From Candidatus Limnocylindria bacterium (GTDB lineage: Bacteria > Chloroflexota > Limnocylindria > QHBO01): a stretch of DNA of 64,000 nt. Every line of letters starts with the position of its first letter. Position 1 is the first letter of the stretch. The notes under the pieces are model-generated. The model was given only the letters and a program-made list of their open reading frames with translations. It had not been told where the DNA came from and did not search any database. This document shows positions 22,130 to 59,852 of the stretch, in pieces. The position numbers and the translations under genes were made by a program. The stretch lies in assembly GCA_050692055.1 (NCBI GenBank), contig JBOGTC010000013.1:2202-66201 (forward strand). The letters run 5' to 3'.

Positions 22130-22207
22130 AGGAACCCCCCACCGTGGAGCCTCTTGATCCCTCCAGCCCGCAGTATAGGTGCAGAACGCATCTTGGGTGC
22201 AGGCGGA

Positions 22208-23185: not shown

Positions 23186-23297
23186 ACGACGATCTCCATC
23201 CGCCCGATGAGCGAGAAATGCTTCAAGGGATCCTCGGAGTCAATAACATGACTCGGCCACCAATCTCACGCTGGTCATTGTGGGAGTCCCACAGGGT

Positions 23298-24149: not shown

Positions 24150-24166
24150 CTCTCGGTGCTGGAATC

Positions 24167-25282: not shown

Positions 25283-25360
25283 TGCGTCCTTCGCAGGATC
25301 GTCCCGGCGGCGCTGGCAGGTACGGTCGCCGTCACTGGCGACCGCGGACAGCTTGCCGGG

Positions 25361-26299
25361 TTATGCCCAGGCGGACAGGTCCAGACCCGTCTGCTCCGCG
25401 AGCCGCCGATTGAGCGGTGCGAACTCCGCGTCCAGCTCCTTCAGCACCCGGACATCATCGTCTGACCTGGCTTGCTGCCCGCGTCGTACGTTCATCGCAG
25501 TGTATGGCCGGGTCAGTGCCTTGCGAAGGGCACGCTTCAGTGAGCTCCTCGGCAAGAGCCGCCCCATCCTCAGTCTGGTTCGCTGCAGCATCTGGAGGCG
25601 GACGTTGTAGGTCTGCTTCTTTCGGGGGAAGTGGTAATCCGCGTAGTACCCCTGGTCGATGCCAAGCGCCGCAGCCACGCTGCGCATGAAAGCCGACTGA
25701 TCTGCCTGCAGAGCCTCGAAGAGGAAGAGATGCAGGTTCTGCGGCGGAAACCTGGACAGCCAGTCGCCCAGGTAGTCACTGTACCGACTGAACTGGATCC
25801 CGTACTCGGACCACGCCTCGCGTTCCACTCGCTCCACCCCGCCTGGAACCGACTGAAATGAACCTGCGCCGGTCCGAAGCATCGACACGAAGTCTCGGAA
25901 TGTCGTGGCCGGGCTGATGATCGCCATGTTGTTGCGGGCGTACTGGTAGAAGGAATACGTGCGTTCCGAGGGCTTGCGAAGCACGAAGACGACCTGGGGT
26001 GCCGGGTCCAGGCTGGAGAGGACCTCCAGGGCGGTTCTACGGTACAGGTACTCGGGCGTGGCTTCGAGGATGACCTGGGCCCGGGCAGGATCGCAATGCG
26101 CGAAGAATGATTCGTAGCCGGCGAGTCCGTGATCCGCGTAGTTACACGCAGGATTGAATAGCGGTGTTCCGCGATCGACCAGGTAGTGGGTCTCCTTCAC
26201 GCTGGCGCCGCATACCTGCGGATGGTCGTTCAGCCACGCAAACAGCGAGGTCGTGCCCGACTTCGGTGCTCCAGCGATCACGACGTTTGGCAGAGTCAT
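25361..26299 (-). CDS. Sulfotransferase (PAPS-dependent family) 3, close paralog of 22208-23185
   Basis: Has MTLPNVVIAGAPKSGTTSLFAWLNDHPQVCGASVKETHY and VLRKPSERTYSFYQYARNN. Confidence 0.85.
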   Translation of the reverse strand: MTLPNVVIAGAPKSGTTSLFAWLNDHPQVCGASVKETHYLVDRGTPLFNPACNYADHGLAGYESFFAHCDPARAQVILEATPEYLYRRTALEVLSSLDPAPQVVFVLRKPSERTYSFYQYARNNMAIISPATTFRDFVSMLRTGAGSFQSVPGGVERVEREAWSEYGIQFSRYSDYLGDWLSRFPPQNLHLFLFEALQADQSAFMRSVAAALGIDQGYYADYHFPRKKQTYNVRLQMLQRTRLRMGRLLPRSSLKRALRKALTRPYTAMNVRRGQQARSDDDVRVLKELDAEFAPLNRRLAEQTGLDLSAWA

Positions 26300-28597: not shown

Positions 28598-30157
28598 ATG
28601 AATCGGTCCGTCGAATCCGAGGAGTCGGCGACCCAACGCCCCAGGCCGGAGGCCAGAACGACCAGGCGGCAGATTCGCGGATCGAGCCTTCTGCTGATCG
28701 GGCGCGGCCTCTCAATGGCGGTCAATTTCGGCGTCCAGATCCTGATCGTCCGCTACTTCTCGAAGCCGGAGTTCGGCGCCTACGCCTACGCCCTCTCCGT
28801 GGTCAATGTGGCTTACACGTTCGTGACCTTCGGTCTGGACCGCGCGGTGACGCGTTTCGTGCCGATCTACGAGGAGCAGGGAGCCTACGCCAAGCTCTTC
28901 GGCACGCTCGCCCTCGCATTCGGCGCGGTCCTCTCGCTGGGAACCCTGGCGCTCATCGCCATCTATGGGCTGCGGGGCTGGATCGAGGATGCCCTCATCG
29001 GCGACCCGCTCGTCCTCAGCGTCCTGGTCGTCCTGATCCTGATGGCGCCCATACGGGCGCTGGGCGACGTCTTCCTGGGGTTGATGGCCGTCTTCGCCAG
29101 CCCGCGCGCGATCTTCTTCCGACGTCACATCCTTCCACCGCTGCTGCGGGCGGTCCTGGTGGGCGTGCTGATTGCCGGCCAGTTCGACGTCGTCTTCTTT
29201 GCCGCCGGTACCGTCGTCACGTCCATCATCGGCTCGCTGGCGTATGTCGTCGTCCTGGCCAACGTGATGCGACGGCGCGGTCTCTTCGGCCGCTTTGATC
29301 GAGCCAGCTTACGGATTCCGTTTCGCGAGGTGCTCGGCTTCACGGTTCCGCTGCTGACGAGCGACCTCGTGTTCGTCGTCATGCACGCCTCGGACGCGTT
29401 GCTGCTCGGGTATTTTCACAATGCGCAGGCGGTGGCCGAGTTCCGGGTTGTGCAGCCGGCCGCCGACCTCAACGTCCTGGTGATGGGCAGCTTCACGCTT
29501 CTCTTCACGCCAATGGCCGCGCGCCTCTTCGCTCGACACGATCACGCTGGGATCCATGAGCTGTACTGGCGTACTGCAGCGTGGATGGCCATCCTGTCCC
29601 TTCCGATCTTTCTGCTGACCTTCTCACTTGCTGGCGATGTTGTCGTGGCTCTGTACGGGGATCCGTATCAGGCGTCGGGTGTGTACCTCACGCTGCTGGC
29701 GCTGGGCTACTACTTCAATGCCGCGCTGGGGTTCAACGGCCTGACGCTCAAGGTCTTCGGAAAAGTACGCTACGTCGTCATCATCAACCTGGCGGTGGCG
29801 GTCCTCAACGTGGCGCTCAACCTTCTCCTGATTCCGTCGTTCGGGGCGCTCGGAGCAGCCATCGGCACCCTGATCGCCATGGTGGTCCACAATTTCCTCA
29901 AGCAGGCCGGGCTTCAGCTCGTTGCCGGACTGTCCATCTTCGACCCCGAGTATGCACGCCTGTATGCGCTCATCGCCCTCAGCTCGGTTGGGCTACTCGC
30001 GATCCAGCTGCTGCTCCACCCACCCCTCTACATCGGCTTCGTGCTCGCGGCTGGCATATCGCTGGCCGTCACCGTGCTGAACCGGAAGCTGCTCGACGTG
30101 CCGCGGACATTCCCCGAGCTGCTTCGCATCCCGCTGGTGCGCAGGATCTTCGGCTGA
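28598..30157 (+). CDS. Polysaccharide flippase (Wzx, MOP/PST superfamily)
   Basis: About 12-14 hydrophobic segments. The N-terminus GSSLLLIGRGLSMAVNFGVQILIVRYFSKPEFGAYA is typical of PST flippases. Confidence 0.8.
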   Translation: MNRSVESEESATQRPRPEARTTRRQIRGSSLLLIGRGLSMAVNFGVQILIVRYFSKPEFGAYAYALSVVNVAYTFVTFGLDRAVTRFVPIYEEQGAYAKLFGTLALAFGAVLSLGTLALIAIYGLRGWIEDALIGDPLVLSVLVVLILMAPIRALGDVFLGLMAVFASPRAIFFRRHILPPLLRAVLVGVLIAGQFDVVFFAAGTVVTSIIGSLAYVVVLANVMRRRGLFGRFDRASLRIPFREVLGFTVPLLTSDLVFVVMHASDALLLGYFHNAQAVAEFRVVQPAADLNVLVMGSFTLLFTPMAARLFARHDHAGIHELYWRTAAWMAILSLPIFLLTFSLAGDVVVALYGDPYQASGVYLTLLALGYYFNAALGFNGLTLKVFGKVRYVVIINLAVAVLNVALNLLLIPSFGALGAAIGTLIAMVVHNFLKQAGLQLVAGLSIFDPEYARLYALIALSSVGLLAIQLLLHPPLYIGFVLAAGISLAVTVLNRKLLDVPRTFPELLRIPLVRRIFG

Positions 30158-32507: not shown

Positions 32508-33407
32508 CTAGCGCGTCGTCGCGATCTCGTCCTCGAGGGAGATCGCCTCTGACGTGCCAACCAGATCAAAGACGTGGTTCACCGAGGCGATCGAGCCATC
32601 CACCGAGGCCGCCGTCCGTTCCCGGGCGAGCGTTGCCAGCGTCTCTTCGATCGCCTGGATGGCGGCGCGCATCGGCTGATTGGCGAGGATGACCATCTGG
32701 AAGCCCTTCTCTCGCAGCTGCTCGGCACTGAACGACGGGAAGAGCGTCGGCACGGCGACGAGGGGAGTCTTCCCGAGGCCGCCCCATTGCCCAAGGAAGC
32801 CCTCGATCTCCCCCAACGTCTTGTCGCGGGAATGGATGAGGATCGCATCGGCACCGGCATTGACATAGGCATCGGCACGCTGGCACGCGTCCTCGATGCC
32901 GTGGCCGGCGATGAGCGACTCGATGCGGGCGATGAACACGAAGTCGTCGCTCTGCTGGGCAGACTTCGCGGCTCGGATGCGGCGAGCCTGCTCCTCGACC
33001 GGGATCAGCTCACGCTTGGACTCTCCCAGGTACAGGCTGTTGCGCTTGGGGAAGAGATTGTCCTCGACGCAGATGGCCGCGATGCCGGCTCGCTCATACT
33101 CGCGGACCGTGCGGACGACGTTGGAGAATCCGCCGAACCCGTTGTCGCAGTCGGCCACCACCGGCAGATCGGTCGCGGCGTCCATGCGGACGGCAGCCTC
33201 GAGCGCCTCGCTCATGGTGATCAGGTTCAGATCCGGCATCGCGTAGGTCATGGTCGAGACGGCCAGGCCGCTCACCCACACAGCGTCGAAGCCATTAGCC
33301 TCGATCAGCTTCGCGGTCAGGGCGTCATGCGCCCCAACAGCCAGGACCGGCCTCGGTCCCTGCAGCCCGTTGCGCAGCGCCTGCCTCTTGGCGTCAGCCT
33401 TCGTCAC
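32508..33407 (-). CDS. PEP mutase-like enzyme of the isocitrate lyase/PEP mutase superfamily (motif EDN-x5-NS)
   Basis: Has AVGAHDALTAKLIEANGFDAVWVSG, VVADCDNGFGG (metal-binding Asp pair) and CVEDNLFPKRNSL. It lacks the KRCGH motif of methylisocitrate/isocitrate lyases. Confidence 0.65.
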   Translation of the reverse strand: MTKADAKRQALRNGLQGPRPVLAVGAHDALTAKLIEANGFDAVWVSGLAVSTMTYAMPDLNLITMSEALEAAVRMDAATDLPVVADCDNGFGGFSNVVRTVREYERAGIAAICVEDNLFPKRNSLYLGESKRELIPVEEQARRIRAAKSAQQSDDFVFIARIESLIAGHGIEDACQRADAYVNAGADAILIHSRDKTLGEIEGFLGQWGGLGKTPLVAVPTLFPSFSAEQLREKGFQMVILANQPMRAAIQAIEETLATLARERTAASVDGSIASVNHVFDLVGTSEAISLEDEIATTR

Positions 33408-34348
33408 TTGGCGATCCCCTCTTTCTCATTGCCTTCGAGCGCTCGGATGATGCGGACGATCTCTCGACCGATCTCGCGTTGCGAATCGATGGTGGTGGCC
33501 CCGATGTGCGGGGTCAGGATGACATTCGGCAGCGCGGCGAGCGGCGAGATCTTGCCCTCGCCCTCCTGCTCGTGCACGTCCAGGCCGGCACCGGCGAGAC
33601 GCCCCTCGGTCGTCAGCTCCCGATGAAGGGCCTCCTCGTCGACGACTCCCCCACGTGCCATGTTGACCAGGAAGGCGCCCGGCTTCATGGTGGCCAACGC
33701 TGCGGCGTCGATCAGCCGATGGCTGGACTCCTTGAGCGGCACGTGGACGCTGACGAAGTCGGCCTCCCTCAGCACGGCCGCGCAGTCCATCAGCTCGATG
33801 CCGGCGTCGGCCAGCTCCTGGGCTCGCGTCGAGCTCGGCGACTCCACGCAGCCGATGACACGCATGCCCCAGGCGGCTCCCAGGCGCGCGACCTGTCCAC
33901 CGATGTTGCCGACGCCGATGACGCCCAGGGTTTTTCCGACGAGGAGGTGGCCGATCACCTCTCCCTTGGCCCAGTGGCCCTGGCGCAGCAGGCGGTCTGC
34001 AAGCATGATCTGGCGCGCCAGCGCCAGCATCAGCCCGAAGCTGAGCTCCGCGACCGCCTGCGCTCCAGGGCCGGGAATGCGCTCCAGGCTGATGCCGCGT
34101 CGCCGAACCTCCTCGAGATCGAGGTTGTCCAGGCCGGACCCGGCCCGGATGATCGTCCTGAGCTGCGGTGCGCACCCCAGCACCGCCGCGCTGACGCGGA
34201 CGCCACTGCGAAAGACGAGGACCTGCCGATCACCGATGAGCGACTTGATGCGGTCCTCATCCGCGTTCAGGGCGAACACGACGTCGTGGCGCGAGCTCAG
34301 GTACTCGACCGCCCTGTCGTCGATCGAGCTGGCAACGAGGATCCTCAT
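33404..34348 (-). CDS. D-isomer-specific 2-hydroxyacid dehydrogenase (3-phosphoglycerate dehydrogenase-like)
   Basis: Has GSGLDNLDLEEVRRRGI, GKTLGVIGVGNIGGQVARL (NAD fold), VSVHVPL, LVNMARGGVVDE and TPHIGATT. It has 4-nt overlaps with both neighbours. Confidence 0.85.
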   Translation of the reverse strand: MRILVASSIDDRAVEYLSSRHDVVFALNADEDRIKSLIGDRQVLVFRSGVRVSAAVLGCAPQLRTIIRAGSGLDNLDLEEVRRRGISLERIPGPGAQAVAELSFGLMLALARQIMLADRLLRQGHWAKGEVIGHLLVGKTLGVIGVGNIGGQVARLGAAWGMRVIGCVESPSSTRAQELADAGIELMDCAAVLREADFVSVHVPLKESSHRLIDAAALATMKPGAFLVNMARGGVVDEEALHRELTTEGRLAGAGLDVHEQEGEGKISPLAALPNVILTPHIGATTIDSQREIGREIVRIIRALEGNEKEGIAK

Positions 34349-41530: not shown

Positions 41531-43129
41531 TCAGGGCCGGTGCGTCACGCCCGCCGCCGGGGCGCCCGCCAGGCTCGGCAACGCACCCGATCCGGTGACC
41601 GGTGAGCGTTCGGGTGCTGGTTCGGCGGCCTCGGCCCGTTCCCGTTCCTTTGCAAGGATCCAGACGGTGACGTTGGCAAGCGCCACCAGCAGCCAGAGGT
41701 AGCGGGCATAGGAAAGGTGCAGGAAGATGCCGGACATGAGGTATGCGGCCAGGCTGAGCTGGAAAGCTGACGCCCAATTCGCATACTCGGCACGCCGTGA
41801 CCGCCAGTAGGCTCGCGTGCGGCTCAGACCGACCCACGTCACCACAATGATCGCGAGGAACAGAGAGAGCCCCAGCAAGCCCAGGTCAGCCGCCATCTCG
41901 GCGTACAGGTTGTGTCCCCGCCGGCTGGTCCCGAAGTGTCTCATTCCGAGGTCATTCGCGACGTCCTGGGAGTACTCGACGAAGTACCGACCCGGCCCGA
42001 CTCCCACGATCGGGTTCTCGAAGAAGGTGACGAGGGCGGCGACGTTCGAGGTCGCTCGGCCGAGGATTGCCCCATCGGGGTCCTCTCCGGAGTCCGACAC
42101 GAGGCCGGCGACTCCGGTGAGCGTTTCGAGGCGCTCGACGAACTCGGGCGCGACGAGGGGAACCGAGATCGCTGCAACGAGCGTCAGCGCGAGCGCGTGC
42201 TTGAGCCTGATGTGGCGCATCAGCACGGCGAGGCCCACGACACCAACGAACGCGACGGCGGCGCCGCGCGAGAAGGTGAGGAGCATACCGGTCAGGATCA
42301 GGAAGCCGGCCACGACGGTCGCCGCACGCAGCCACCGCGAGCGCGTACTCAGGAACGCGAACGCCGCCAGCGGTAGCAGCACGATCATGATCTGGGCGTA
42401 GCGGTTCTTCGAGCCGATCGGCCCGCCGAGCCGCGGGCGCAACCCCTCCTCCACGACCTCCTCATCGGACGCCTCGCCACTCTGCGCAAAACCCCCGTAG
42501 TAGTTCTCGTAGGTTCCCGTCACCTCCTGGAAGAGCGACAGGCCGCCCATGAGCGTGCCCGCCAAGAGCAGCACGGCGATCGCCCAACGCACCATCTCCG
42601 GCGTCCGGATCGCGTTGACGACGAGTATGAAGAGGAGCATGCCTTCGGCGACATAGATGCCCATCCAAGCGGCCGAGGCGCGGACATCCGCCGAGAGGAG
42701 CGATGAGAGCATCTGCGCTCCCAGGAAGGCGATCATCAGGGGGAAGACCCTGGTCAGAACGACCTCCTGGCGGCGGATCAGGACATACCCCACGGCGGGC
42801 AGGCCGATCAGGACCGGTGACATGGCCGCCACCACGGTGGGCACCCCGTGGAAGTGCATCGCGACCACCGGCACGTTCGTATAGAAGATGAACAGGAAGA
42901 GGAGGATCGAGAGCCGCGGGTTGGCGATGAGCACGCCACCGGCGAACAGGAGCACGGATCCGAGCAAGAACGGCAGCGGGCTCTCGGCGAAGGCGATCGC
43001 GCCTCCCAGGACGGCAGCCATGGCGAGGCAGGCAACGGCGAGGAGAAGGCGGCCCCCGCGCCTGCGCTGCGTCGGGCTGACGGCGGGCAGCGGCAGGGCG
43101 GCGGGCAGCGACGGGGCGCCGGCGCTCAC
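41531..43129 (-). CDS. O-antigen polymerase/ligase family membrane protein (Wzy-like)
   Basis: About 11-12 TM segments. LLTFSRGAAVAFVGVVGL is a typical Wzy_C region. Followed by a large loop and terminal TMs. Its start overlaps the GT2 stop (ATGA). Confidence 0.75.
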   Translation of the reverse strand: MSAGAPSLPAALPLPAVSPTQRRRGGRLLLAVACLAMAAVLGGAIAFAESPLPFLLGSVLLFAGGVLIANPRLSILLFLFIFYTNVPVVAMHFHGVPTVVAAMSPVLIGLPAVGYVLIRRQEVVLTRVFPLMIAFLGAQMLSSLLSADVRASAAWMGIYVAEGMLLFILVVNAIRTPEMVRWAIAVLLLAGTLMGGLSLFQEVTGTYENYYGGFAQSGEASDEEVVEEGLRPRLGGPIGSKNRYAQIMIVLLPLAAFAFLSTRSRWLRAATVVAGFLILTGMLLTFSRGAAVAFVGVVGLAVLMRHIRLKHALALTLVAAISVPLVAPEFVERLETLTGVAGLVSDSGEDPDGAILGRATSNVAALVTFFENPIVGVGPGRYFVEYSQDVANDLGMRHFGTSRRGHNLYAEMAADLGLLGLSLFLAIIVVTWVGLSRTRAYWRSRRAEYANWASAFQLSLAAYLMSGIFLHLSYARYLWLLVALANVTVWILAKERERAEAAEPAPERSPVTGSGALPSLAGAPAAGVTHRP

Positions 43130-47477: not shown

Positions 47478-48956
47478 TTACTCAGCCGGACGGTTGTCCG
47501 GAAGGCGGCCGCCCGACACGGCGTCACGGCGCTGTTCGTCGATGCCGCGCCCGCTCGCTGCGGCCGACCGTGTCGCGCTCGCCGCCTGCCTCACGGCCAC
47601 CGGCGCCCCGAGGTCCGGCCTCATTTGCGCGCCGGCCGGCCGTCTCGAACCAGCGCGTGCGTCGCTCTTGCGGAGCGCCTGCCGACCGTCCTGCAGGATC
47701 GTGCCAACGAGATTGGCCCCCACCAGCCGCAGGCTGTCGACGGCATACACGACGTTGTGTCGCTTCGACTCGCCTCGGTGGGCGGTGAGGACCGTGCTGT
47801 CCACAATGCCCGCCCACATCAGCGTGCTTGCCGAAAGGTGGATGGGAGCCGAGTTCACGATGATGAGGTCCGCACGCGCGGCGACCAGGTCGAGGATCTG
47901 GCGCGCGTGTCCCGCATCGACCAGGTCAGCATGCCTGCTCAGTCCGTACGGCAGCACGACGACATCCGGCGCCTGGTGGTGCAACGCGTCGTCCAGCACG
48001 TCGGGGCCTCCCGCGAGCAGATCGGTGAGGCCAACGCGACCGTCGAGGCGCAGGAGCCTGGTGATCTCTCGCCGTTCTGCATTCGCATCCACCAGCGCGA
48101 CGCGCTTTCCGCTGCGAGCGAAGGCCGCGGCGAGGTTGGCCGCAACCTCACCGCTGCCGTCGTGGGTCTGTGCCCCGACGACGAGCAGACGTTCCTTCGA
48201 ATGGTCACCGGCCGCGAAGGCGAGCTTCGTGGTGATCAACCGATAGGCGATAGCGGCACGCGAGTCGGGTGCCGCCTCGACGATGAGCGGGTTGGCGGAC
48301 CGCAGGCGTCGGGGGCGGGACAGGTCGGCAGTGCCGAGCAGGGGCACCGGCGCCGCCTGCGCCAGGTCGTACGACTCCATGACCGCATCGCTGAAGTACT
48401 CGATGAGCAGCAGCAGCACGATGGCGCCCAACAGGCCCGCGAAGACCGCCAGCCCGACGATGAGCGAGATCTGCGGCGCAACCGGCGAGCTGGGGACCTC
48501 GGCCGGCTCGAGCAACAGCGGCGCACCGTCCGGGCGGCTGAGGCTCTGAGATGTGATGAGCTCGAGCTGGTCGAAGAGCGCGTTCGCGATCGCGGCCGCG
48601 AGCTCGGGATCGCCGTGCTCGGCGGTGATGGTCAGGAGTCGGGTCGTGGTGTCGGCCGTGGCGCGCACCGTCGGCCGCAGCTGGCGCGGCTCGATGGAGA
48701 GCCCCAGCTGCTCGATCGTGCCCTCCAGCAGCGGTTGGCTGGCGATCAGCTCGCCGTAGGTCTGCACGTGAAGCGACGCGGCCCGCAGCGTCTCGGCATC
48801 AGCGTTGATCGGTCCGATGAGAACGCGCGAGCGGGACTCGTATGTCGGCGGTATCTGCGACGCCACAAAGTAACCGGCAAGCCCCGCCACCCATCCCGCG
48901 ATGATCAGCGTCCACAGCCATCGCCTCGCCATGGCGACATAGCGCGTCAGTTCCAA
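47478..48956 (-). CDS. Polysaccharide co-polymerase (Wzz domain) fused to a BY-kinase-like domain with degenerate Walker motifs
   Basis: TTG start at 48956 lies 5 nt after GGAGGAG. The Wzz-like N-terminus has 2 TMs. The C-domain has VVGAQTHDGSGEVAANLA where GxxGxGK[ST] is expected, VALVDAN (Walker A'), and LIIVNSAP where D is expected. The C-terminal tail has no Tyr cluster. Confidence 0.75.
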   Translation of the reverse strand: MELTRYVAMARRWLWTLIIAGWVAGLAGYFVASQIPPTYESRSRVLIGPINADAETLRAASLHVQTYGELIASQPLLEGTIEQLGLSIEPRQLRPTVRATADTTTRLLTITAEHGDPELAAAIANALFDQLELITSQSLSRPDGAPLLLEPAEVPSSPVAPQISLIVGLAVFAGLLGAIVLLLLIEYFSDAVMESYDLAQAAPVPLLGTADLSRPRRLRSANPLIVEAAPDSRAAIAYRLITTKLAFAAGDHSKERLLVVGAQTHDGSGEVAANLAAAFARSGKRVALVDANAERREITRLLRLDGRVGLTDLLAGGPDVLDDALHHQAPDVVVLPYGLSRHADLVDAGHARQILDLVAARADLIIVNSAPIHLSASTLMWAGIVDSTVLTAHRGESKRHNVVYAVDSLRLVGANLVGTILQDGRQALRKSDARAGSRRPAGAQMRPDLGAPVAVRQAASATRSAAASGRGIDEQRRDAVSGGRLPDNRPAE

Positions 48957-52446: not shown

Positions 52447-53976
52447 TCAGTTGGCCACCACGAAGTCAACGTACTGCAGCCCGGTCAGACGCTTTCCACC
52501 GTCAACCGCATCGACCCGCAGCACCAGCGTGTGGAGGCCGTTGGCCATGGTCGTCGTGTCGATCCGCAGCGACCCGCGGAACTCGCTGTTCCACTGGCCG
52601 AGCACGATTCCACCGCCGTCCGAGTCCTCATCGTTGTGATGGAAGTCGGGACCGATGTAGGCCGCGCTGAAGGTCGTCTGCCCACCGCCAGAACCGGCAT
52701 CGAGCCGGACCTGCGGCTGCCACACGCCGCTGACCGTCTGGCCCGGCAACACGCCCGTGAGGGACTGCAGCACCGGATTCTGGTAGCCGTTATCGGTATA
52801 CCAGCCGCGACCCACGATGCCGCCGATGCCGTCGCGCTGGCCACCGTCCGAATTGCCGTTCTCCGTCCTGATCGGCCAGCCGGAGCTGGTGAGCATGACC
52901 TCGCCGTTGGACAGCTCGACGCGCGGCTTGAACCTCAGCTCGTGCCACCCGTCGTTGGCCTTGGTGGTATCGACACGGGTACGGACCCAGTACTCGCACG
53001 TTCGGCCAGTGCCACACGTCTCGTCCATGCCGACCGCGTGCAGGTTCCCTTGCCCCGCGTGATTCGTGAACAGCGCGGTCTCATAGCGGAACAGGTGGCC
53101 GGGGTTGTCGTGCAGGGTGATGAGCGTGTCGAAGGTGACCACGCCCGAAACGGTCTGTCCCAGCGGCACGCACGACGCGGCGTGCAGGTGCGCGATCTGG
53201 CCCTCCGCCAACGGGTCGCCCTCCCACCACGTGTGAATCTGTAGGAAGGTCCTCGGCTCGGGGTAGCCGGTGCACGTCACCGGGTTGCCCGACCCGGCCG
53301 CGTGTCCGGGCTGCTGAGCGGTCGCGCTTTCCTCGTGCTGCTCCGGGGTCGGCTGCGCAGTCGGCTCGCCAGTGGTCACCACCGGGGCCGGGGCCGGGGC
53401 AGCCACCGTCGTCGGCGCCGGTGTCGGCTCTTCACTCGGCAGCTGGGGCGCCGGAACGGTCAGCTCTGGTCCGCCGCCCAGGTCGGTTGTCGTCGGATCT
53501 GCCAGCACGGGCGTCGGGTCCGGCTCGACAGCGACCGGCAGCTCCAGCACGCGCACGGTAACGGTCGCCTCACGCGGTTCGCCCGAATCGCTCGAATGCT
53601 CGACCGCCGTCAGCTCATACGAACCCTCCTCAGCGTCGGCCGGCACGGTCACGACCGTCTCGAATCTGCCTGCGCTATCGGCGATCACGACGGCCATGCC
53701 CTGCGACGAGCCATTCCAGCGCAGCTCGATGTGAGCGTTCGGAGCGAAGCCCTCACCCGCTGCGACCACCGCCCCACCGGGGACGGCCGCCATGATGACG
53801 GAGAGCTCCGGGCTCGCCGCCTCGACCCGGGTGCTCGCGAATGCCATGACGCACAGGACGAGCGCGATCGGGATCGTCCGGAGCGGTCCGGGTAATCGAC
53901 TGGGGCGTTTCGGTTCGGTGAGGTTGAATGACAGCTGGCGGGGTCGCTGGCTCGAGACCAGGGATGGGGCACGCAT
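52447..53976 (-). CDS. Secreted hypothetical protein: Ig-like N-domain, Pro/Thr-rich linker, ~300-aa Cys-containing domain of unknown function
   Basis: Signal-like IPIALVLCVMAFASTRVEA. Linker PTPVLADPTTTD...PTPAPTTVAAPAPAPVVTTGEPTAQPTPE. I recognised no motif in the C-domain. Confidence 0.6.
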   Translation of the reverse strand: MRAPSLVSSQRPRQLSFNLTEPKRPSRLPGPLRTIPIALVLCVMAFASTRVEAASPELSVIMAAVPGGAVVAAGEGFAPNAHIELRWNGSSQGMAVVIADSAGRFETVVTVPADAEEGSYELTAVEHSSDSGEPREATVTVRVLELPVAVEPDPTPVLADPTTTDLGGGPELTVPAPQLPSEEPTPAPTTVAAPAPAPVVTTGEPTAQPTPEQHEESATAQQPGHAAGSGNPVTCTGYPEPRTFLQIHTWWEGDPLAEGQIAHLHAASCVPLGQTVSGVVTFDTLITLHDNPGHLFRYETALFTNHAGQGNLHAVGMDETCGTGRTCEYWVRTRVDTTKANDGWHELRFKPRVELSNGEVMLTSSGWPIRTENGNSDGGQRDGIGGIVGRGWYTDNGYQNPVLQSLTGVLPGQTVSGVWQPQVRLDAGSGGGQTTFSAAYIGPDFHHNDEDSDGGGIVLGQWNSEFRGSLRIDTTTMANGLHTLVLRVDAVDGGKRLTGLQYVDFVVAN

Positions 53977-54230
53977 GCTGGGACCTTCCTCGGGTGCGGG
54001 TGCCGACTCTCATCGGCCTCGACGCGGCCCGTCAGCTCGCCCGTTCGTCCCGAGGAAGGCGCGAAATGGCGATTTGCGAGCCTCCTCGCGCAGGGCGGCA
54101 CGCGAGTTCAGGGAAGCATACAGCACCGCTCCAAGCCCGCGTGCGCCAGATCGGTACCTACGCCTACTCGAACGCGAGCGTCGTAGCTCTCCGGTCCTGG
54201 TCGGCTCCGATTGGCTCGGGTCGGCGGAGC

Positions 54231-54860
54231 CTAGGCCGGCGGCAGGTACCCGAGCTCCTCGAGCCTCGCGACCACCCTGGCGGCGCTCTCATCAGGTGTC
54301 TCGCGGCCGTCCGAGTAGCAGGTCACCTCGGCGTTCAGCGGCGCCTCGTACGGGTCGCTGACGCCGGTGAAGTTGGCGAGCTCTCCGGCCAGCGCCTTCT
54401 TGTAGAGGCCCTTGACGTCGCGCTCGGCGAGCACGTCGATGGGCGCCTCGACGTACACCTCCACGAAGCGTCCGATGTTGGCGCGCACCTCGTCGCGGAT
54501 CTCGCGATACGGGCTGATGGCGGCGGCGATGGCGACGGTCTCGTTGCGCGTGAGGAGCTCGCATACCCATCCGATGCGCCGGATGTTGGTATCGCGATCC
54601 TCCTTGCTGAAGCCGAGCCCCTTCGAGAGGTGCGTGCGCACGACGTCGCCGTCGAGCACCTCCACTCGAAGGCCGCGGGCGCGCAGCTCACGCTCCACGA
54701 TCTCGCTGATGGTGCTCTTGCCGGCCCCGGACAGGCCGGTGAACCAGATGGTGAAGCCGATGCTGGCATCGGCCGCGCGCGGCGTGCCGGCGTCGCCATG
54801 CGTGGAGGCGGCCGGGGCCTGCCCCATGGCGGCGGTCGTGTCGGGCGTATCGGTGGTCAT
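54231..54860 (-). CDS. cysC: Adenylylsulfate (APS) kinase
   Basis: ATG at 54860. Has [15 protein letters not shown] (P-loop), [21 protein letters not shown], and [23 protein letters not shown]. Confidence 0.9.
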
Positions 54861-54886
54861 CGGTCCGTTCGTCGTTGCTCCTGTGC

Positions 54887-56062
54887 TCACTGCGGTACCG
54901 GGCTGCGGTTGGCGTCGATCAGAATCTGGGCCACCTCCGGCCGGCTGAACTCCGGCGGCGGCATCTCGCCGCTCGACAGCAGCTCTCGCACCTTCGTGCC
55001 CGACAGGATGAGATGAGCCTCGTCGCCGTGCGGGCAGGTCTTGTACGACGCCATGCCCTCGCAGGCGTGACACCAGAACGTGTGCTCGAAGAAGAGCGGC
55101 GTGATCCCGAGCTCGTCCGGCCCGAACTCGTCGAAGATGTGGTGCGCGTCGTAGGTGCCGTAGTAGCTGCCGACCCCGGCATGATCGCGGCCGACGATGA
55201 AGTGGGTGCAGCCATAGTTCTTGCGCGCGATGGCGTGGAAGATCGCCTCGCGCGGGCCGCCGTAGCGCATGGCGGCGGGGTAAACGGAGAGCAGGGTGCG
55301 GTCGGCCGGATAGTAGGCGGCGAGGAGCGTCTCGTAGGCGCGCATGCGCACGTCGGCCGGAGTATCGTCCGACTTCGTGTCGCCGACCAGTGGGTGGACC
55401 ATCAGGCCGTCGACCACTTCCAGCGCGACCTTGGTGAGGTACTCATGAGCGCGGTGGATCGGGTTTCGCGTCTGGAACCCTACCACGCGTCGCCAGCCCC
55501 GCTCGGCGAAGATGGCACGGGTCTGCGCGGGGGCCCGACGGTGCTCCGCGAACGGAGGATCCTGGGGTTCTTCGAGCACCCAGACCTCGCCGCCGAGGTA
55601 GACGTCACCGGCCGCCTGGATGCGCGCGACGCCGGGGTGCGCCTCCTCCGTCGTACGGAAGACGCTCCGGGCCTCGTGCTCCTTGTCGTAGGCGTACTTC
55701 TCCGATAGCTCGAGGATGCCGACCGCCCTCCCGGCGTCGTCCACCAGCGAGATCTCCGAGCCGATCTCGAGCCGGTCGGCATGGTCGCGAGGCACGGCCA
55801 GGGCCACCGGGATGGTCCAGGGCAGTCCGTTGGCCAGGCGCATCAGGTCCACGACGCTGCGGTAGTCCGCCTCGCCCATGAACCCGGTCAGCGGGCTGAA
55901 GGCGCCGTTGCCGATCAGCTCGAGGTCCGAGATGCCGACTGAGCTGAGCGTGACGGCAGGAAGGCTGCTCGACCGCTCCCGCGCGGCCTCGCGCGCGGAG
56001 TCGGTGAGCTGGCGATCGACGAGGGTCCCTCCGTGAGGGGCGATCTGAACGGAATTGGACAC
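54887..56062 (-). CDS. sat: Sulfate adenylyltransferase (ATP sulfurylase)
   Basis: Has [26 protein letters not shown], and [12 protein letters not shown]. Confidence 0.95.
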
Positions 56063-56161
56063 GAACGGCGGATCCTCCGGTGATGTGACGGGGCCATCGG
56101 AATACCGGTGGCGGCGGGCGGCGGCCTCCTATGGTAGCGCGTCCGCCGATCTGCCCCGTCC

Positions 56162-57931
56162 TCAGAAGGGAAAGGCGAGCGGGATCAGGACGGTCGCCAG
56201 CACGATGGTCATGAGGTTCAACGGCAGGCCCACTCGCGTGAAGTCGGAGAACCGGTACCCACCGAGCCCGTAGACGAGCAGGTTCGTCTGGTATCCGATG
56301 GGCGTCAGGAACGAAAGGCTGGCGCCCAGCGCCACGGCGATGACGAACGGGCGCGGATCGCTGCCCGTGGCGGCAGCGGTCGCCAGCGCGACCGGAAACG
56401 CGATGACCGCCGCTGCGTTGTTCGAGATGAGCTCGGTGAGCAGCATGGTCGTGATCAGCACGGCCGCCAGGACGCCGAGCGGCCCGAACGGCTCCATGAC
56501 GCCGACTAGGAGCCCCGCGATCGCCTCGCCGAGGCCGCTCTTCTCCACCGCCGAGCCCAGGCCGAACGCCGCAGCGATGAGGATGACGATGTTGAGATCC
56601 ACCGCGTCGCGTGCCTGGCGGACGGTGAGCACCCGCGTGGCGACGATTGCCAGCGCCGCACCCAGCGAGGCATGGAGAATCGGCACGATCCCGAGGCCGG
56701 TCAGCGCCACCAGCGCGAAGCCGATGATGCCCACCAGTCCGGCCTTGCGCGGCTGCGTGGGCGGGATTCCTCCCAGGGAGGCGACGACCAGGAAGTCGAG
56801 CCTGTCGCGCCAGCGGTCGCGAAACGCGCGATCGCCGAGCACCAGGAGCGTGTCGCCGAGGCGCAACGGCACCTCGCCCAGCTTGGCGTCGATCCGTTGG
56901 CCGGCGCGGTGGATGGCAAGCACCGCGGCGTCATACCGCGCCCGGAATCCGATCTCCTTCAGCGTGTGGCCCACGAGGTCGCCGCCCGCCCCGACGACGA
57001 CCTCGTAGAAGCGGTGGCCGCCGGTGGCGAGCTCGTCGATGTGCCGGCTCTCGGCTGACTCCAGGCCGCGCATGCGCTGGAGGTCCACGATCTGGTCGAC
57101 GCGCCCGACGAAGGTCAGCAGGTCGCCACCGGCCAGCGGCTCATGCGGCGCCACTGGCACGATGCGCCGTCCCCCCCGCTCGATCTCGACCAGGAAGACC
57201 CCCTGGAGCTGCCGCAGGCCGGCCGTCTCGACCGTGGAGCCATCGACGGGACCAGCGGCTGCCACCCGCATCGTCACCGTGAAGTCCCGGCCGCCGGCGG
57301 CGATCGCCTCGCGCGAGGAGTCGCGCGCCGGCAGCAGGCGACCTGCGACCAGCACCATGAGCAGGCAACCCACGATCGCGATTGGCAGGCCCACCGGAGT
57401 GAGCTCGAACAGATCGAGCGGGGGCATGCCCGACTCGACCAGCAGACCTGAGACGGTGAGATTCGTCGACGTGCCGATTGCGGTGATCACGCCGCCCAGG
57501 ACCGCCGCATAGCTGAGCGGGATGAGGAAGCGCGAGGGAGGGAGCCCCCGTCGCTGCGAGAGCTCGAGCACGGCGGGCACCGTCATCGCCACCAGCGTGG
57601 TGTTGTTGAGAAAGCCGGACATCCCGGCGATCGGGAACAGCAGGCGCGCGAGCAGCACCCGCCCCTGCCGCGCGGATCCGAACAGCCCGGCCACCACGGG
57701 CTGCATCACGCCCGCCACGTCAACCGCCCGAGCGAGAATCAGTAGCGCGCCGACCACGATGGGCGCCTCGCTGCTGAATCCGCGAAACGCCTCGTCGGGC
57801 TCGACGAGTCCGATGAGCAGCAGGACGATGGTGGCGGCCAGGACCGCCAGCGCAGGCTGAACCATGTCGCGCGCCAGCACGACCACGAGCGCCACGATGA
57901 CGCCCAACGTGAGCCAGGCTTCGAGTCCCAT
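56162..57931 (-). CDS. SLC13/DASS-family anion permease with two central TrkA-C (RCK_C) domains, putative sulfate transporter
   Basis: ATG at 57931 (MGLEAWLTLGVIVALVVVLARD). The longer ORF to 58369 overlaps nrnA and reads as low-complexity. Two RCK_C-like segments (GSTVETAGLRQLQGVFLVEIERGG..., LVGHTLKEIGFRARYDAAVLAIHRAG...) are flanked by TM bundles. Confidence 0.8.
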   Translation of the reverse strand: MGLEAWLTLGVIVALVVVLARDMVQPALAVLAATIVLLLIGLVEPDEAFRGFSSEAPIVVGALLILARAVDVAGVMQPVVAGLFGSARQGRVLLARLLFPIAGMSGFLNNTTLVAMTVPAVLELSQRRGLPPSRFLIPLSYAAVLGGVITAIGTSTNLTVSGLLVESGMPPLDLFELTPVGLPIAIVGCLLMVLVAGRLLPARDSSREAIAAGGRDFTVTMRVAAAGPVDGSTVETAGLRQLQGVFLVEIERGGRRIVPVAPHEPLAGGDLLTFVGRVDQIVDLQRMRGLESAESRHIDELATGGHRFYEVVVGAGGDLVGHTLKEIGFRARYDAAVLAIHRAGQRIDAKLGEVPLRLGDTLLVLGDRAFRDRWRDRLDFLVVASLGGIPPTQPRKAGLVGIIGFALVALTGLGIVPILHASLGAALAIVATRVLTVRQARDAVDLNIVILIAAAFGLGSAVEKSGLGEAIAGLLVGVMEPFGPLGVLAAVLITTMLLTELISNNAAAVIAFPVALATAAATGSDPRPFVIAVALGASLSFLTPIGYQTNLLVYGLGGYRFSDFTRVGLPLNLMTIVLATVLIPLAFPF

Positions 57932-58025
57932 GCAGTGCGCCGTCCTGGAAGTAGAATCTGCCGGACGCCCCGGCCTGCCCGCAGTAAGCGGTGACGAGTC
58001 CGTCGGGCAGGGAGGATACCTGTTG

Positions 58026-59030
58026 ATGACACCGGCCGAAGGGCCGACGGACGACCTTCCCGTCGTTGCGGCGCTGCTCGCCGCGCGACGGGTGACCGCC
58101 ATCTGCCATGAGAACCCCGATGCGGACACCATCGGCGCCGCCATCGCGGTGGCGATCATCGCCGAGCAGCTCGGCAAGGAGGCGGAGATCGTGAGCGTCG
58201 ATCCTCCCGCACCCGCGTTCGGGTTCCTGCCGCGCTTCGACCAGATCATTCGGTCGCCGCGCCTCGAGCCGGACGTCGCGGTGGTGTGCGATGCGGCGTC
58301 GCTGGCACGCGTGGGCAGCATCACGTCGGACGCGGCCGAGTGGCTGTCGCGCGCCACGCTGATCAACATCGATCACCACGTGACGAACGACAGGTTCGGC
58401 GACGTCAACCACGTCGACGCTGACGCGGCCGCGACCTGCCAGGTCATCGCGGAGCTCCTGCCGCGTCTCGGCGTGCGACCGGACGCGGACGTGGCCACCG
58501 CCCTCCTCGCGGGAATCGTCCGCGACAGCCACGGCTTCTCCGACCCGGGAACCTCCGCGCGGACGCTGCGCTCGGCAGCGGACCTGGTGGAGGCCGGGGG
58601 TGACCTCGCCGCAGCCCATCGCATGCTCGTGGAGCTGCCGACCGCGACCATGGCGCTGTGGGGAAAGCTGCTCGATGCGATGGTCCCCGCGTTCGACGGC
58701 CGCATCATCTACACCATCCTCACCAAGGCGATGCTCGACGAGACCGACACGCGCCAGCACGACGCGGATGGGCTCGTCGAGTTCATGGCCAATGCGAAGG
58801 GCGTGGACGTGGCGCTGCTGCTGCGCGAGGTTGGGCCGACGACGACGCGGGTCAGCATCCGCACCAATGACCGGGTGGATGCGACGCGCATCGCGGCGGC
58901 CTTCGGAGGCGGCGGCCATGCGAGCCGAGCAGGCTGCACGATGACGGCCGCGTGCATGGACGGGCTCGATCTGCTGCTCCCGGCATGTGAGCGCGAGCTG
59001 GCGGGACTCGACGCGCGGCGGGGCACCTAG
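58026..59030 (+). CDS. nrnA: DHH/DHHA1 phosphoesterase, NrnA-type (oligoribonuclease / pAp phosphatase)
   Basis: ATG at 58026 after GGGAGGA. Has ICHENPDADTIGA (DHH motif I/II region), INIDHHVTN (DHH) and GGGGHASRAG (DHHA1 GGGH). Confidence 0.8.
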   Translation: MTPAEGPTDDLPVVAALLAARRVTAICHENPDADTIGAAIAVAIIAEQLGKEAEIVSVDPPAPAFGFLPRFDQIIRSPRLEPDVAVVCDAASLARVGSITSDAAEWLSRATLINIDHHVTNDRFGDVNHVDADAAATCQVIAELLPRLGVRPDADVATALLAGIVRDSHGFSDPGTSARTLRSAADLVEAGGDLAAAHRMLVELPTATMALWGKLLDAMVPAFDGRIIYTILTKAMLDETDTRQHDADGLVEFMANAKGVDVALLLREVGPTTTRVSIRTNDRVDATRIAAAFGGGGHASRAGCTMTAACMDGLDLLLPACERELAGLDARRGT

Positions 59031-59057
59031 TTGGCCATTGGGCCCGACGCCGCGCGC

Positions 59058-59483
59058 ATGGCATCCGGCCGCATCGTGGTGATCGCCGTCTTCTACGGGC
59101 TTCTCGGTGGCACCGCGCTGCTGATCGGGCTCGGCCCGCTGCTCCAGCCTGCCGGCCCATGGATCCGCCTGGCCGGGTTCGTGGCGATTGCAACGGGAGT
59201 GACGCTCATCGCCGCCGCGGCCGGGCTGCTGTGGCGCGGCCGCCTCGGAAGGGCGCTCGGCATCGCGGGCGGCATCGCGGCGCTCGTCCTTGGAGTCATG
59301 GTGGTCGGTCTGTCATTGGCCAGCCTGGAGAGCTGCCCCGGGCTCGACGACGCAGCGCAGCCGTGCTTCGTCCTGGTCGGGGGCATCGGCTTCATCGGGC
59401 TGCTGATCACTTTCGCCGGGCTGGGCGCCATTGCGGTCATCCGACGGACCCGCAGGAGCTTCTTCCGGCCACGACGCCCGTAG
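59058..59483 (+). CDS. Hypothetical 4-TM membrane protein
   Basis: Hydrophobic segments with a basic C-terminal tail. The start is either TTG at 59031 or ATG at 59058. Confidence 0.45.
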   Translation: MASGRIVVIAVFYGLLGGTALLIGLGPLLQPAGPWIRLAGFVAIATGVTLIAAAAGLLWRGRLGRALGIAGGIAALVLGVMVVGLSLASLESCPGLDDAAQPCFVLVGGIGFIGLLITFAGLGAIAVIRRTRRSFFRPRRP

Positions 59484-59510
59484 GCTCCTCGAGAAGCGCG
59501 GCGGGGGCCG

Positions 59511-59852
59511 TCACGCCGGCCCGCGGACGAGGGCAGGAAGCTCTCTCACGAGCCTGGAGCGCGCCCACATCGGGCCGAGACCATGACGCTTCGCGTCCGC
59601 GTGCGCCTGGAGGTCGGTATGAGGGCCGAACAACACGAGCCTTGTGCCCGGTGCCGATGATCGCCACGTCCGCAGCGCATCTTCCCAGCCAGCTGCTCGC
59701 TCGTTCCAGTCGACGAGCACCACGTCCGCCTGCGCCGGGGGCGGCAGCTGCTGCGGGGAGTCGACGCGGCTCAGCTCGGCACCGGCCTGGCGCGCCGCGG
59801 CCTCGATTCTGCTGAACAGCATGAGGTCGCGCACCACGGCGACCACCTTCAC
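59511..59852 (-). CDS. Small hypothetical protein with receiver-like (CheY-like) topology
   Basis: MKVVAVVRDLMLFSRIE...ADVVLVDWN...TRLVLFGPH resembles a beta-alpha receiver layout, but the acidic pocket is not clearly conserved. 4-nt overlap with the upstream gene. Confidence 0.4.
   Translation of the reverse strand: MKVVAVVRDLMLFSRIEAAARQAGAELSRVDSPQQLPPPAQADVVLVDWNERAAGWEDALRTWRSSAPGTRLVLFGPHTDLQAHADAKRHGLGPMWARSRLVRELPALVRGPA

Follow-up and report, generated by a model that had tools for sequence, protein, structure and literature searches.

A Four-Gene Cassette beside a Glycan Island

In the window, by which we mean the whole 64,000-nucleotide stretch of DNA that was analysed, three minus-strand genes form an operon that is transcribed divergently from a fourth gene on the plus strand. 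The first gene of the operon (56162–57931) encodes an SLC13/DASS-type anion permease with two TrkA_C (RCK_C) domains; it is followed by sat (54887–56062), for a homo-oligomeric ATP sulfurylase (sulfate + ATP → APS + PPi), and by the last gene, cysC (54231–54860), for an APS kinase (APS + ATP → PAPS). The plus-strand gene (58026–59030) encodes a protein with a DHH and a DHHA1 domain, referred to here as DHH-S, a sulfation-linked paralogue of NrnA and a putative pAp 3'-phosphatase. An earlier note on this DNA had named the same four genes, and profile matches bore it out for all of them, coordinates included. CysC matched PF01583 (E 3e-60) and scored above the cut-offs of NF002059 (275.4 bits, cut-off 244) and TIGR00455 (216.7 bits, cut-off 138.7); an alternative start of its gene is the ATG at 54827. 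Sat consists of PUA_2 and ATP-sulfurylase domains, scored 562.5 bits against NF003166 (cut-off 387) and 437.6 bits against TIGR00339 (cut-off 323), and has orthologues of 78–80% identity in relatives. The sat gene starts with GTG and the DHH-S gene with ATG, each preceded by a plausible ribosome-binding site (GGAGGA and GGGAGG, respectively).

The permease operon and the DHH-S gene are separated by 94 bp (57932–58025), presumably a shared control region, in which TAGAAT can be read directly at 57952–57957. A sigma-70 consensus scan of the interval of 53.8–59.9 kb did not find a promoter, and the terminator-like hairpins in the same interval were either weak or located within coding sequence. 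As the search of the window with Rfam at gathering thresholds did not find any RNA families, a riboswitch is not evident.

The position of the four genes at the edge of an island, as proposed previously, was confirmed: they lie between a glycan island (~11–54 kb) and a conserved core flank consisting of orf134, ProDH, pgl and opcA. The left boundary of the cassette is marked by orf509 (52447–53976, minus strand), and the right one by orf150 (59031–59483, plus strand), which encodes a small protein; its C-terminal, anchor-like match (Loki-CTERM-like, E 0.008) is weak. G001, a relative without sulfation genes, has its homologues of orf509 and orf150 (the latter of 45% identity) side by side, next to orf134–ProDH, indicating that the four genes are a cassette that is either present or absent. 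A repeat search around the cassette gave only chance-level matches, and flanking direct repeats or signs of mobile elements were not found there.

Sulfotransferases of the Glycan Island

The neighbouring island (11242–52337), delimited by Pfam scans, is of the Wzx/Wzy type. It encodes Wzx (28598–30157), Wzy (41531–43129) and a Wzz-like protein (47478–48956), and, additionally, glycosyltransferases, epimerases, a deacetylase and a PEP-mutase cassette. The three sulfotransferases that the earlier note had placed at 22–26 kb proved real in searches with the PF00685 and PF13469 profiles. All are of the PAPS type, and one of them is on the plus strand: the first is encoded at 22208–23185 (minus strand), the second at 23280–24149 (plus strand) and the third at 25361–26299 (minus strand), and the block that they form (22208–26299) also contains the gene of a GT4 glycosyltransferase (24167–25282, minus strand). 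In the whole genome, sulfotransferase matches were limited to these three, all of them in the window and inside the island. The search with the PF03567 (Sulfotransfer_2) profile was uninformative, as this profile matched none of the control genomes. Thus, sat, cysC, the three sulfotransferase genes, the genes of Wzx, Wzy and the Wzz-like protein and several glycosyltransferase genes are all found within 11–59 kb. We presume that the sulfotransferase block is the consumer of PAPS, and, judging by its gene content, the product of the island is presumably a sulfated glycan.

The Permease

The permease matched the CitMHS profile with 249 bits (residues 20–536), the Na_sulph_symp profile with 53 bits (residues 420–583) and the TrkA_C profile twice. 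Its hydrophobic segments span residues 1–204 and 395–589, with the cytoplasmic TrkA_C loop between the two membrane halves, and its homologues could be aligned from residue 1. Residues 537–553 are what we take to be an exact match to the Na+/sulfate symporter signature. The score against the DASS subfamily model TIGR00785 was 109.5 bits, below the cut-off of 198.6; by its sequence, the permease is related to the SLC13/DASS family without being covered by this curated model of a subfamily. Its orthologues were found in 4/41 related genomes only, each of them a carrier of the module, and its substrate is probably sulfate. The lack of an SLC13 orthologue in 2/6 module carriers indicates that the permease is optional. 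The earlier note took the two RCK_C domains as a hint that sulfate uptake may be gated by a ligand. The architecture itself is not unusual, as the SLC13 proteins of the SAC1 type in algae, and bacterial homologues of these, likewise carry TrkA_C twice in their central loop (PMC8780407). In a comparison of architecture and signature, the permease resembles the Na+/sulfate transporters SAC1/SLT of Chlamydomonas and their bacterial SLC13 homologues in its SLC13 core, central-loop TrkA_C domains and Na+/sulfate signature (PMC8780407).

Sulfate Activation and the Lack of Detectable Sulfate Reduction

The genome analysed is a MAG of an uncultured soil bacterium of the Limnocylindria (Chloroflexota). 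It is 89.75% complete, and for that reason absences are reported here as "not found". It holds one sat and one cysC gene; a genome-wide search for a second pair or another sulfate-activation locus found none. The earlier note had seen no assimilatory reductase in the window, and the same held for the genome as a whole, in which neither the CysH/CysD family (PF01507), nor NIR_SIR sulfite reductase (PF01077), nor AprA was found. A dissimilatory role of Sat was considered and rejected: the match to AprA was weak and far under the cut-off, and a DsrAB-type NIR_SIR gene was not found.

Sat, CysC and a sulfate permease are also the first steps of sulfate assimilation in many bacteria. Thus, Sat and CysC could feed PAPS or APS reductase and sulfite reductase encoded elsewhere for the synthesis of cysteine, with the proximity of the glycan island being incidental, and the incompleteness of the genome leaves some room for such genes. 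We consider this extremely unlikely, since not only were the three reductase families not found in this genome, but sulfite reductase (PF01077) was found in 0/41 related genomes (29 of them with a completeness of 90% or more). PF01507 exceeded the cut-off in only four relatives, in three strongly and in one weakly, exactly at the cut-off, and in the sole module carrier among them the match is CysD, encoded beside CysN and separated from the DHH paralogue by about 4 kb. Moreover, 35/41 relatives lack Sat and CysC, and both proteins track sulfotransferases exactly: strong matches to cysC, an ATP sulfurylase, sulfotransferases and a second DHH gene were found in the same 6/41 genomes and in no others, although these genomes, like those of the linkage survey described below, are related and are not independent samples. 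The pattern did not change when G015, an unpublished genome among the six carriers, was left out. As enzymes that reduce PAPS, APS or sulfite were not found in this lineage, the cassette appears to serve sulfation and not sulfur assimilation. These results support the view of the earlier note that the locus is a dedicated source of sulfuryl donor; both of the findings by which a genome could speak against it were looked for, and neither turned up.

DHH-S Is a Sulfation-Linked Paralogue of NrnA

DHH-S (334 residues) matched PF01368 (E 3e-14, residues 23–164) and PF02272 (E 2e-9, residues 232–308), which fits the plan of NrnA proteins, in which DHH is followed by DHHA1 in about 310–340 residues. 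In a PDB sequence search it matched solved NrnA proteins, including Rv2837c/CnpB, with E 1.6e-35. Its best NCBIfam match was NrnA (NF053633), with a score of 89.9 bits (cut-off 350). The housekeeping nrnA of this genome, located on another contig (C150) between infB and truB, encodes a protein that scored 72.2 bits and thus also failed this cut-off, suggesting that NF053633 is too narrow for this phylum. DHH-S is about 48–50% identical to this infB–truB-linked copy, and its own gene lies outside that position, adjoining the permease operon.

To survey the linkage of such genes, 80 DHH loci were collected from species-representative genomes with tblastn. In 57/80 the gene is next to infB, truB or both (both in 53), whereas in 23/80 it is not located between these two genes. 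Of these 23 loci, 21 have the gene beside SLC13, sat, cysC or cysDN, and the remaining two are on short contigs with uninformative flanks. A sulfotransferase gene is located up to about 1 kb downstream of the DHH gene in 13/23 loci, and further along the locus in five more. In the window, a remnant of such a sulfotransferase gene was sought in 58.9–60.3 kb, and the one marginal match (E 6e-4) was not accepted. The phylogenetic tree consists of two clades, each with 100% support, and recovers the groups set by genomic context: the DHH-S clade is sister to the housekeeping clade and evolves faster, and each of its members with readable flanks is beside genes of the PAPS pathway. This link persists despite the replacement of Sat with CysDN in four loci and despite changes in gene order. 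The linked loci probably share an ancestral arrangement next to ProDH, and part of the synteny may thus reflect inheritance and not selection. DHH-S is a sulfation-linked paralogue and not the housekeeping NrnA.

The catalytic motifs of DHH-S are intact. Residues D32, D34, D89, D116-H117-H118, D167 and G294-H298 are kept in at least 90% of the sequences of both clades, and the metal ligands (motifs I–IV) and the GGGH substrate motif, whose roles have been described along with those of the other DHH motifs (PMC5593865), align with those of Rv2837c. The two clades also share the strand R275-x-S277-x-R279, which differs from R-x-R-x-R, the pattern with which Bacillus-type NrnA, e.g., that of B. 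subtilis, binds the 5'-phosphate of pAp (PMC5593865); in this it resembles the mycobacterial type, from which two of the arginines are missing. The changes fixed specifically in the DHH-S clade cluster at two places: in the motif IV loop, with R166 beside the metal-binding D167, and within the conserved substrate motif GGGH-x-x-ASG, with R301.

Possible Substrates of DHH-S

From the genomic context and the conservation of the active site, we infer that DHH-S hydrolyses pAp. Other proteins of this genome could also remove pAp, namely the housekeeping NrnA-like protein and an IMPase-family protein. The latter is encoded by the sole Inositol_P gene of the genome (contig C99), which scored 110 bits with the CysQ model (cut-off 229), is ambiguous among SuhB, HisN and CysQ, and is present in 40/41 relatives. 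DHH-S itself was ruled out as a CysQ, because it has the DHH fold rather than the Inositol_P fold.

Belonging to the NrnA family is in itself no guarantee of activity towards pAp, as the NrnA of D. radiodurans lacks it (PMC11229311); that of M. smegmatis is very slow on pAp (PMC11229311, PMC8268124). Moreover, the closest solved relatives of DHH-S (Rv2837c/CnpB, M. smegmatis NrnA and TmPDE) prefer dinucleotides (PMC5593865), and DHH-S has R-x-S-x-R where the B. subtilis enzyme uses R-x-R-x-R to hold the 5'-phosphate of pAp. Thus, the cassette could supply PAPS while DHH-S acts as a second nanoRNase or a phosphodiesterase of dinucleotides (pApA, pGpG, c-di-AMP) that was merely inherited at this site, leaving the clearance of pAp to the housekeeping NrnA-like enzyme or to the IMPase-family protein, whose gene is at hand. 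We regard this as unlikely. DHH-S is confined to genomes with both PAPS synthesis and sulfotransferases, and its adjacency to the PAPS genes survives both the exchange of the sulfurylase and the reshuffling of genes, whereas the IMPase gene occurs irrespective of sulfation. There is also no evident reason for a second nanoRNase to track sulfation.

Alternatively, the target of DHH-S might be on the donor side of the pathway rather than on that of the by-product. CysQ-type enzymes accept PAPS as well as pAp. Similarly, PyapApase was proposed to degrade "pAp and pApS" (PMC8268124). By dephosphorylating PAPS to APS, or by hydrolysing APS, DHH-S would act as a futile-cycle valve on the PAPS pool, and its transcription divergent from the operon would suit such a regulatory counter-activity. 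Hydrolysis of the donor would, however, waste two ATP per cycle, and the same 3'-phosphatase chemistry would hit pAp, so that this activity would add to pAp hydrolysis more than replace it; we consider it very unlikely as the main role of DHH-S.

Returning to pAp as the substrate of DHH-S, a more specific proposal, to which we give about even chances, is that DHH-S is neofunctionalised: at the base of Limnocylindria, a duplicate of the housekeeping nanoRNase would have been re-tuned to a pAp phosphatase of high specificity. This re-tuning would rest on the added arginines, R166 by the metal site and R301 in GGGH-x-x-ASG.

Proposed Function of the Cassette

Taken together, these results suggest that the four genes are probably an accessory cassette from which the neighbouring Wzx/Wzy glycan island receives its sulfate donor. 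In the proposed pathway, sulfate would be imported by the SLC13 permease and converted to APS by Sat and then to PAPS by CysC, as expected from the families to which these two enzymes belong. The three sulfotransferases of the island would transfer the sulfuryl group to a sugar polymer with the release of pAp, and DHH-S, as a specialised duplicate of the nanoRNase NrnA, would split pAp to AMP and phosphate, preventing product inhibition of the sulfotransferases.

To our knowledge, there are few records of sulfated polysaccharides from bacteria other than cyanobacteria and marine species. Among the abundant Limnocylindria of soil and freshwater, the cassette marks the probable producers of such polysaccharides. 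If DHH-S was indeed neofunctionalised as proposed above, it would also follow that widespread soil Chloroflexota that are apparently unable to assimilate sulfate import it solely for the sulfation of their surface polymers. As the cassette shows, the presence of sat and cysC in metagenomes need not mean sulfate assimilation. Additionally, the paralogue pair offers matched material on the choice of NrnA-type enzymes between short RNA and pAp, and, if neofunctionalisation did take place, two paralogues in one cell would be a natural pair for finding the determinants of this choice. A specific and compact pAp phosphatase could also help enzymatic sulfation cascades, in which inhibition by pAp is a known limit.

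Comparison with Known Systems

Our search of the literature did not find a description of a sulfation-linked NrnA paralogue in Chloroflexota, and a recent paper on Limnocylindria genomics does not mention sulfur. DHH-S shares its fold, size, catalytic motifs and GGGH motif with NrnA (B. subtilis YtqI and M. tuberculosis Rv2837c/CnpB), several members of which are documented to hydrolyse pAp as a side activity. It differs from NrnA in being a second, faster-evolving copy off the infB–truB position, with R166 and R301 fixed, in its restriction to sulfating genomes and in its score far below the NrnA cut-off.

DHH-type pAp phosphatases adjoin the genes for an ATP sulfurylase and an APS kinase in archaea (PMC10322725, PMC8268124). 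Specific activity on pAp was measured for two of them, MtPAPP of Methanothermococcus thermolithotrophicus (PMC10322725) and PyapApase of Pyrococcus yayanosii (PMC8268124), which, like DHH-S, are DHH/DHHA1 proteins encoded in a sulfate-activation cluster; the gene of DHH-S likewise shares its locus with those for an ATP sulfurylase and an APS kinase. However, MtPAPP cannot be aligned with NrnA beyond the DHH motif, whereas DHH-S is a clear relative of NrnA. In support of that, the PDB matches of DHH-S at E ≤ 1e-5 were bacterial NrnA, CnpB, TmPDE, GdpP and pyrophosphatase chains, and no chain labelled as the PAP phosphatase of M. thermolithotrophicus was found among them. The archaeal clusters further include genes for a CopG regulator and a pyrophosphatase-like protein, both of which the cassette lacks.

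Among bacteria, the cluster for the sulfated capsular polysaccharide of Cobetia marina KMM 1449 contains cysN/cysC (cysNC), cysD, cysQ and a sulfate permease gene (PMC11766843), and a similar cluster is present in Vibrio sp. KMM 8419 (PMC11641403). As in these clusters, a permease, an ATP sulfurylase, an APS kinase and a pAp phosphatase, here a putative one, are grouped at a polysaccharide cluster that bears sulfotransferases. In contrast to Cobetia, the sulfurylase in the window is Sat and not CysDN, although CysDN occurs in some relatives, the permease belongs to SLC13 and bears a pair of TrkA_C domains, and the putative phosphatase is a DHH-fold duplicate of NrnA and not an IMPase-fold CysQ. 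Moreover, a second, assimilatory copy of the pathway was not found in the host, and its sulfated product is presumed from the genes. Thus, the logic of the module is already known from other bacteria and archaea, and the Limnocylindria cassette is a variant of it.

Organization of the Cassette and the Adjacent Glycan Island

The window lies within C13, one of the 169 contigs of a metagenome-assembled genome of 2.69 Mb that is 89.75% complete. The taxon names of close homologues assign this genome to the Chloroflexota, class Limnocylindria. At ~11-54 kb it carries a Wzx/Wzy glycan island, which contains a flippase, a polymerase, a Wzz-like protein, several glycosyltransferases, epimerases, a deacetylase, and a PEP-mutase cassette; at 32508-34348 a PEP-mutase-family gene adjoins a 2-hydroxyacid dehydrogenase gene. 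Three sulfotransferase genes of the island (22208-23185, minus strand; 23280-24149, plus strand; 25361-26299, minus strand) account for all Sulfotransfer_1 and Sulfotransfer_3 matches of the genome. The G+C content of this block (22001-26000) is 0.63-0.65, as compared with 0.65-0.72, mostly at least 0.68, elsewhere in the window, which would fit a separate acquisition.

The layout described in the earlier note, permease-sat-cysC on the minus strand and a divergent DHH gene, was found in full. Both cysC (54231-54860, minus strand) and sat (54887-56062, minus strand) scored above the NCBI curated cut-offs. The SLC13 permease (56162-57931, minus strand) has a CitMHS/Na_sulph_symp core with two TrkA_C domains, which form a loop between its membrane halves (residues ~1-204 and 395-589). 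Its residues 537-553 match exactly the Na+/sulfate symporter signature, which we take to indicate the family and not sulfate specificity. The DHH/DHHA1 gene (58026-59030, plus strand), separated from the permease gene by 94 bp, had NrnA as its best model (89.9 bits versus a cut-off of 350). To the right of the cassette are the core genes orf134, proline dehydrogenase (ProDH), pgl, and opcA.

Sulfate Activation Without Detectable Reductive Genes

A sole sulfate activation locus could also serve ordinary assimilation, in which PAPS is reduced for cysteine synthesis. The whole genome contains one sat and one cysC, with no second set elsewhere. Searches for the PAPS_reduct family (CysH or CysD), the NIR_SIR sulfite reductase and AprA gave nothing above noise in this 89.75% complete genome, and were positive in control genomes. 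None of 41 genomes (our own and 40 related Limnocylindria; 29 of them at least 90% complete) yielded an NIR_SIR match. PAPS_reduct exceeded the cut-off in only four relatives, in one of them exactly at the cut-off. The sole match in a genome carrying the module is CysD; as CysN is encoded alongside, ~4 kb from the DHH paralogue of that genome, this match represents a sulfurylase and not a reductase. Strong PAPS_reduct-family genes (E ~1e-40) are present in two relatives (G006:C170:977-1648 and G024:C17:28115-28786), both of which lack cysC, sulfotransferase genes and the DHH paralogue. A CysH-type reductase was found neither in our genome nor in the module carriers. As no reductase, sulfite reductase or AprA was found, and the one PAPS_reduct match in a carrier is CysD, ordinary assimilation is very unlikely to account for the cassette, although these absences mean 'not found' in incomplete genomes. 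Limnocylindria may rely on reduced sulfur sources.

Sulfotransferases occurred in 6 of the 41 genomes (G000, which is our own, G002, G010, G015, G019, and G021), and the identical six had strong cysC matches, a second DHH gene, and an ATP sulfurylase, which is CysDN in G002 and Sat in the other five. The carrier G015 and the non-carrier G004 are unpublished genomes; without G015 the pattern is the same (5/40). Since related genomes are not independent samples, this co-occurrence is to be read as a pattern and not as a statistic. The permease had an orthologue in only four of the six carriers and is thus an optional part.

The DHH Gene Is a Module-Linked Paralogue

Besides the window gene, our genome has two DHH genes, one for RecJ and an NrnA-like one located between infB and truB on contig C150. 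The NrnA-like copy and the window gene are ~48-50% identical. The earlier designation of the window gene as NrnA-type holds for its best model and its catalytic motifs, but the gene is a paralogue distinct from the infB-truB housekeeping copy. We surveyed 80 DHH loci of species-representative genomes, classed by neighbour genes. A total of 57 adjoin infB, truB or both (both in 53). Among the other 23, 21 are divergent from SLC13, sat, cysC or cysDN, and the contigs of the remaining 2 are too short for neighbour genes to be seen. A sulfotransferase gene is located within ~1 kb downstream of the DHH paralogue in 13/23 loci, usually followed by orf134 and ProDH, and farther along the locus in another 5. 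CysDN takes the place of Sat in four loci (L025:5167-7334, L030, L080, and L082), with cysC and the DHH paralogue retained; the linkage also persists through gene-order changes. In 13 related loci the sulfotransferase gene stands directly after the DHH paralogue and before orf134-ProDH (e.g., L031:9172-9840, L044:9269-9895, and L065:9247-9933). The window has no such gene at 59031-59849 but orf150 instead, with one marginal match resembling a sulfotransferase remnant (~59440-59631, E 6e-4).

In a maximum-likelihood DHH tree, constructed without reference to genomic context, the two context groups formed sister clades (100% SH-aLRT support each), and the pair was set apart from the remaining Chloroflexota copies with a support of 86. 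This topology is most simply read as the result of a duplication close to the base of the class. Between the seven genomes having both copies, the mean identity was 55.7% for the sulfation-linked copy versus 70.1% for the housekeeping copy, and was lower for the former in 20/21 genome pairs. Across these paralogue pairs (e.g., L031/L067 and L082/L068) the linked-copy identities do not track the housekeeping ones; in one genome pair they are 48% and 76%, respectively. This uncoupling hints at old sub-lineages or within-class exchange of the cassette.

In a relative lacking sulfation genes (G001), the homologues of the boundary genes orf509 (52447-53976) and orf150 (59031-59483) are adjacent, beside orf134-ProDH. 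This empty site (L114, G001:C22:39000-58999) corresponds to window 52447-59483. The four genes are therefore present or absent together, at one fixed position. Another relative, G005, lacks the cassette and has homologues of Wzy and GT2 after the matching flank. In other carriers a homologue of a glycan-island gene is located just past cysC or the permease gene. No repeats or mobile-element signs were found flanking the cassette.

Putative Role of the DHH Paralogue in pAp Removal

Both DHH clades share the metal ligands D32, D34, D89, D116-H117-H118 and D167, the R-x-S-x-R strand, and GGGH. They differ at 15 fixed positions, 6 of them in the loop straight after the motif IV aspartate. R166 of the sulfation-linked clade corresponds to Gln in the housekeeping clade. 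R301, within the GGGH-x-x-ASG motif, corresponds to Ala there and in other Chloroflexota. In Bacillus subtilis NrnA this motif and the arginine strand make up the pAp and nanoRNA binding face (PMC5593865). Judging from the alignment, two added positive charges at the catalytic cleft would suit a small two-phosphate substrate. NrnA-family membership itself does not guarantee pAp activity, as Deinococcus radiodurans NrnA has none (PMC11229311).

In the PAPS supply-and-recycling scheme proposed earlier, the permease would take up sulfate, Sat and CysC would produce PAPS, the glycan-island sulfotransferases would consume it to yield a presumably sulfated product, and the DHH paralogue would remove pAp. 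An IMPase-family protein or the housekeeping NrnA-like copy might be additional pAp removers. The only IMPase-family gene of our genome (C99:7327-8274, L006:1366-2316) scored below the SuhB, HisN and CysQ model cut-offs alike, and the family was found in 40/41 genomes.

Comparison with Known Systems

The functional design of the window cassette equals that of the PAPS region in the sulfated-capsule cluster of Cobetia marina, which comprises cysN/cysC, cysD, cysQ and a gene for a sulfate permease (PMC11766843). The design also agrees with the 'hallmark' described for Vibrio sp. KMM 8419 (PMC11641403). The permease, with its two TrkA_C domains, has the SLC13 architecture seen in algal sulfate-related proteins of the SAC1 type and in the bacterial homologues of these; related SLT transporters have other numbers of these domains (PMC8780407). 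Archaea provide established examples of dedicated DHH-fold pAp phosphatases whose genes adjoin those of ATPS and APSK (PMC10322725, PMC8268124), although of a lineage other than that of the window protein. What is different here is the probable recruitment of an NrnA duplicate instead of CysQ, in a host lineage that appears to have no assimilatory route.
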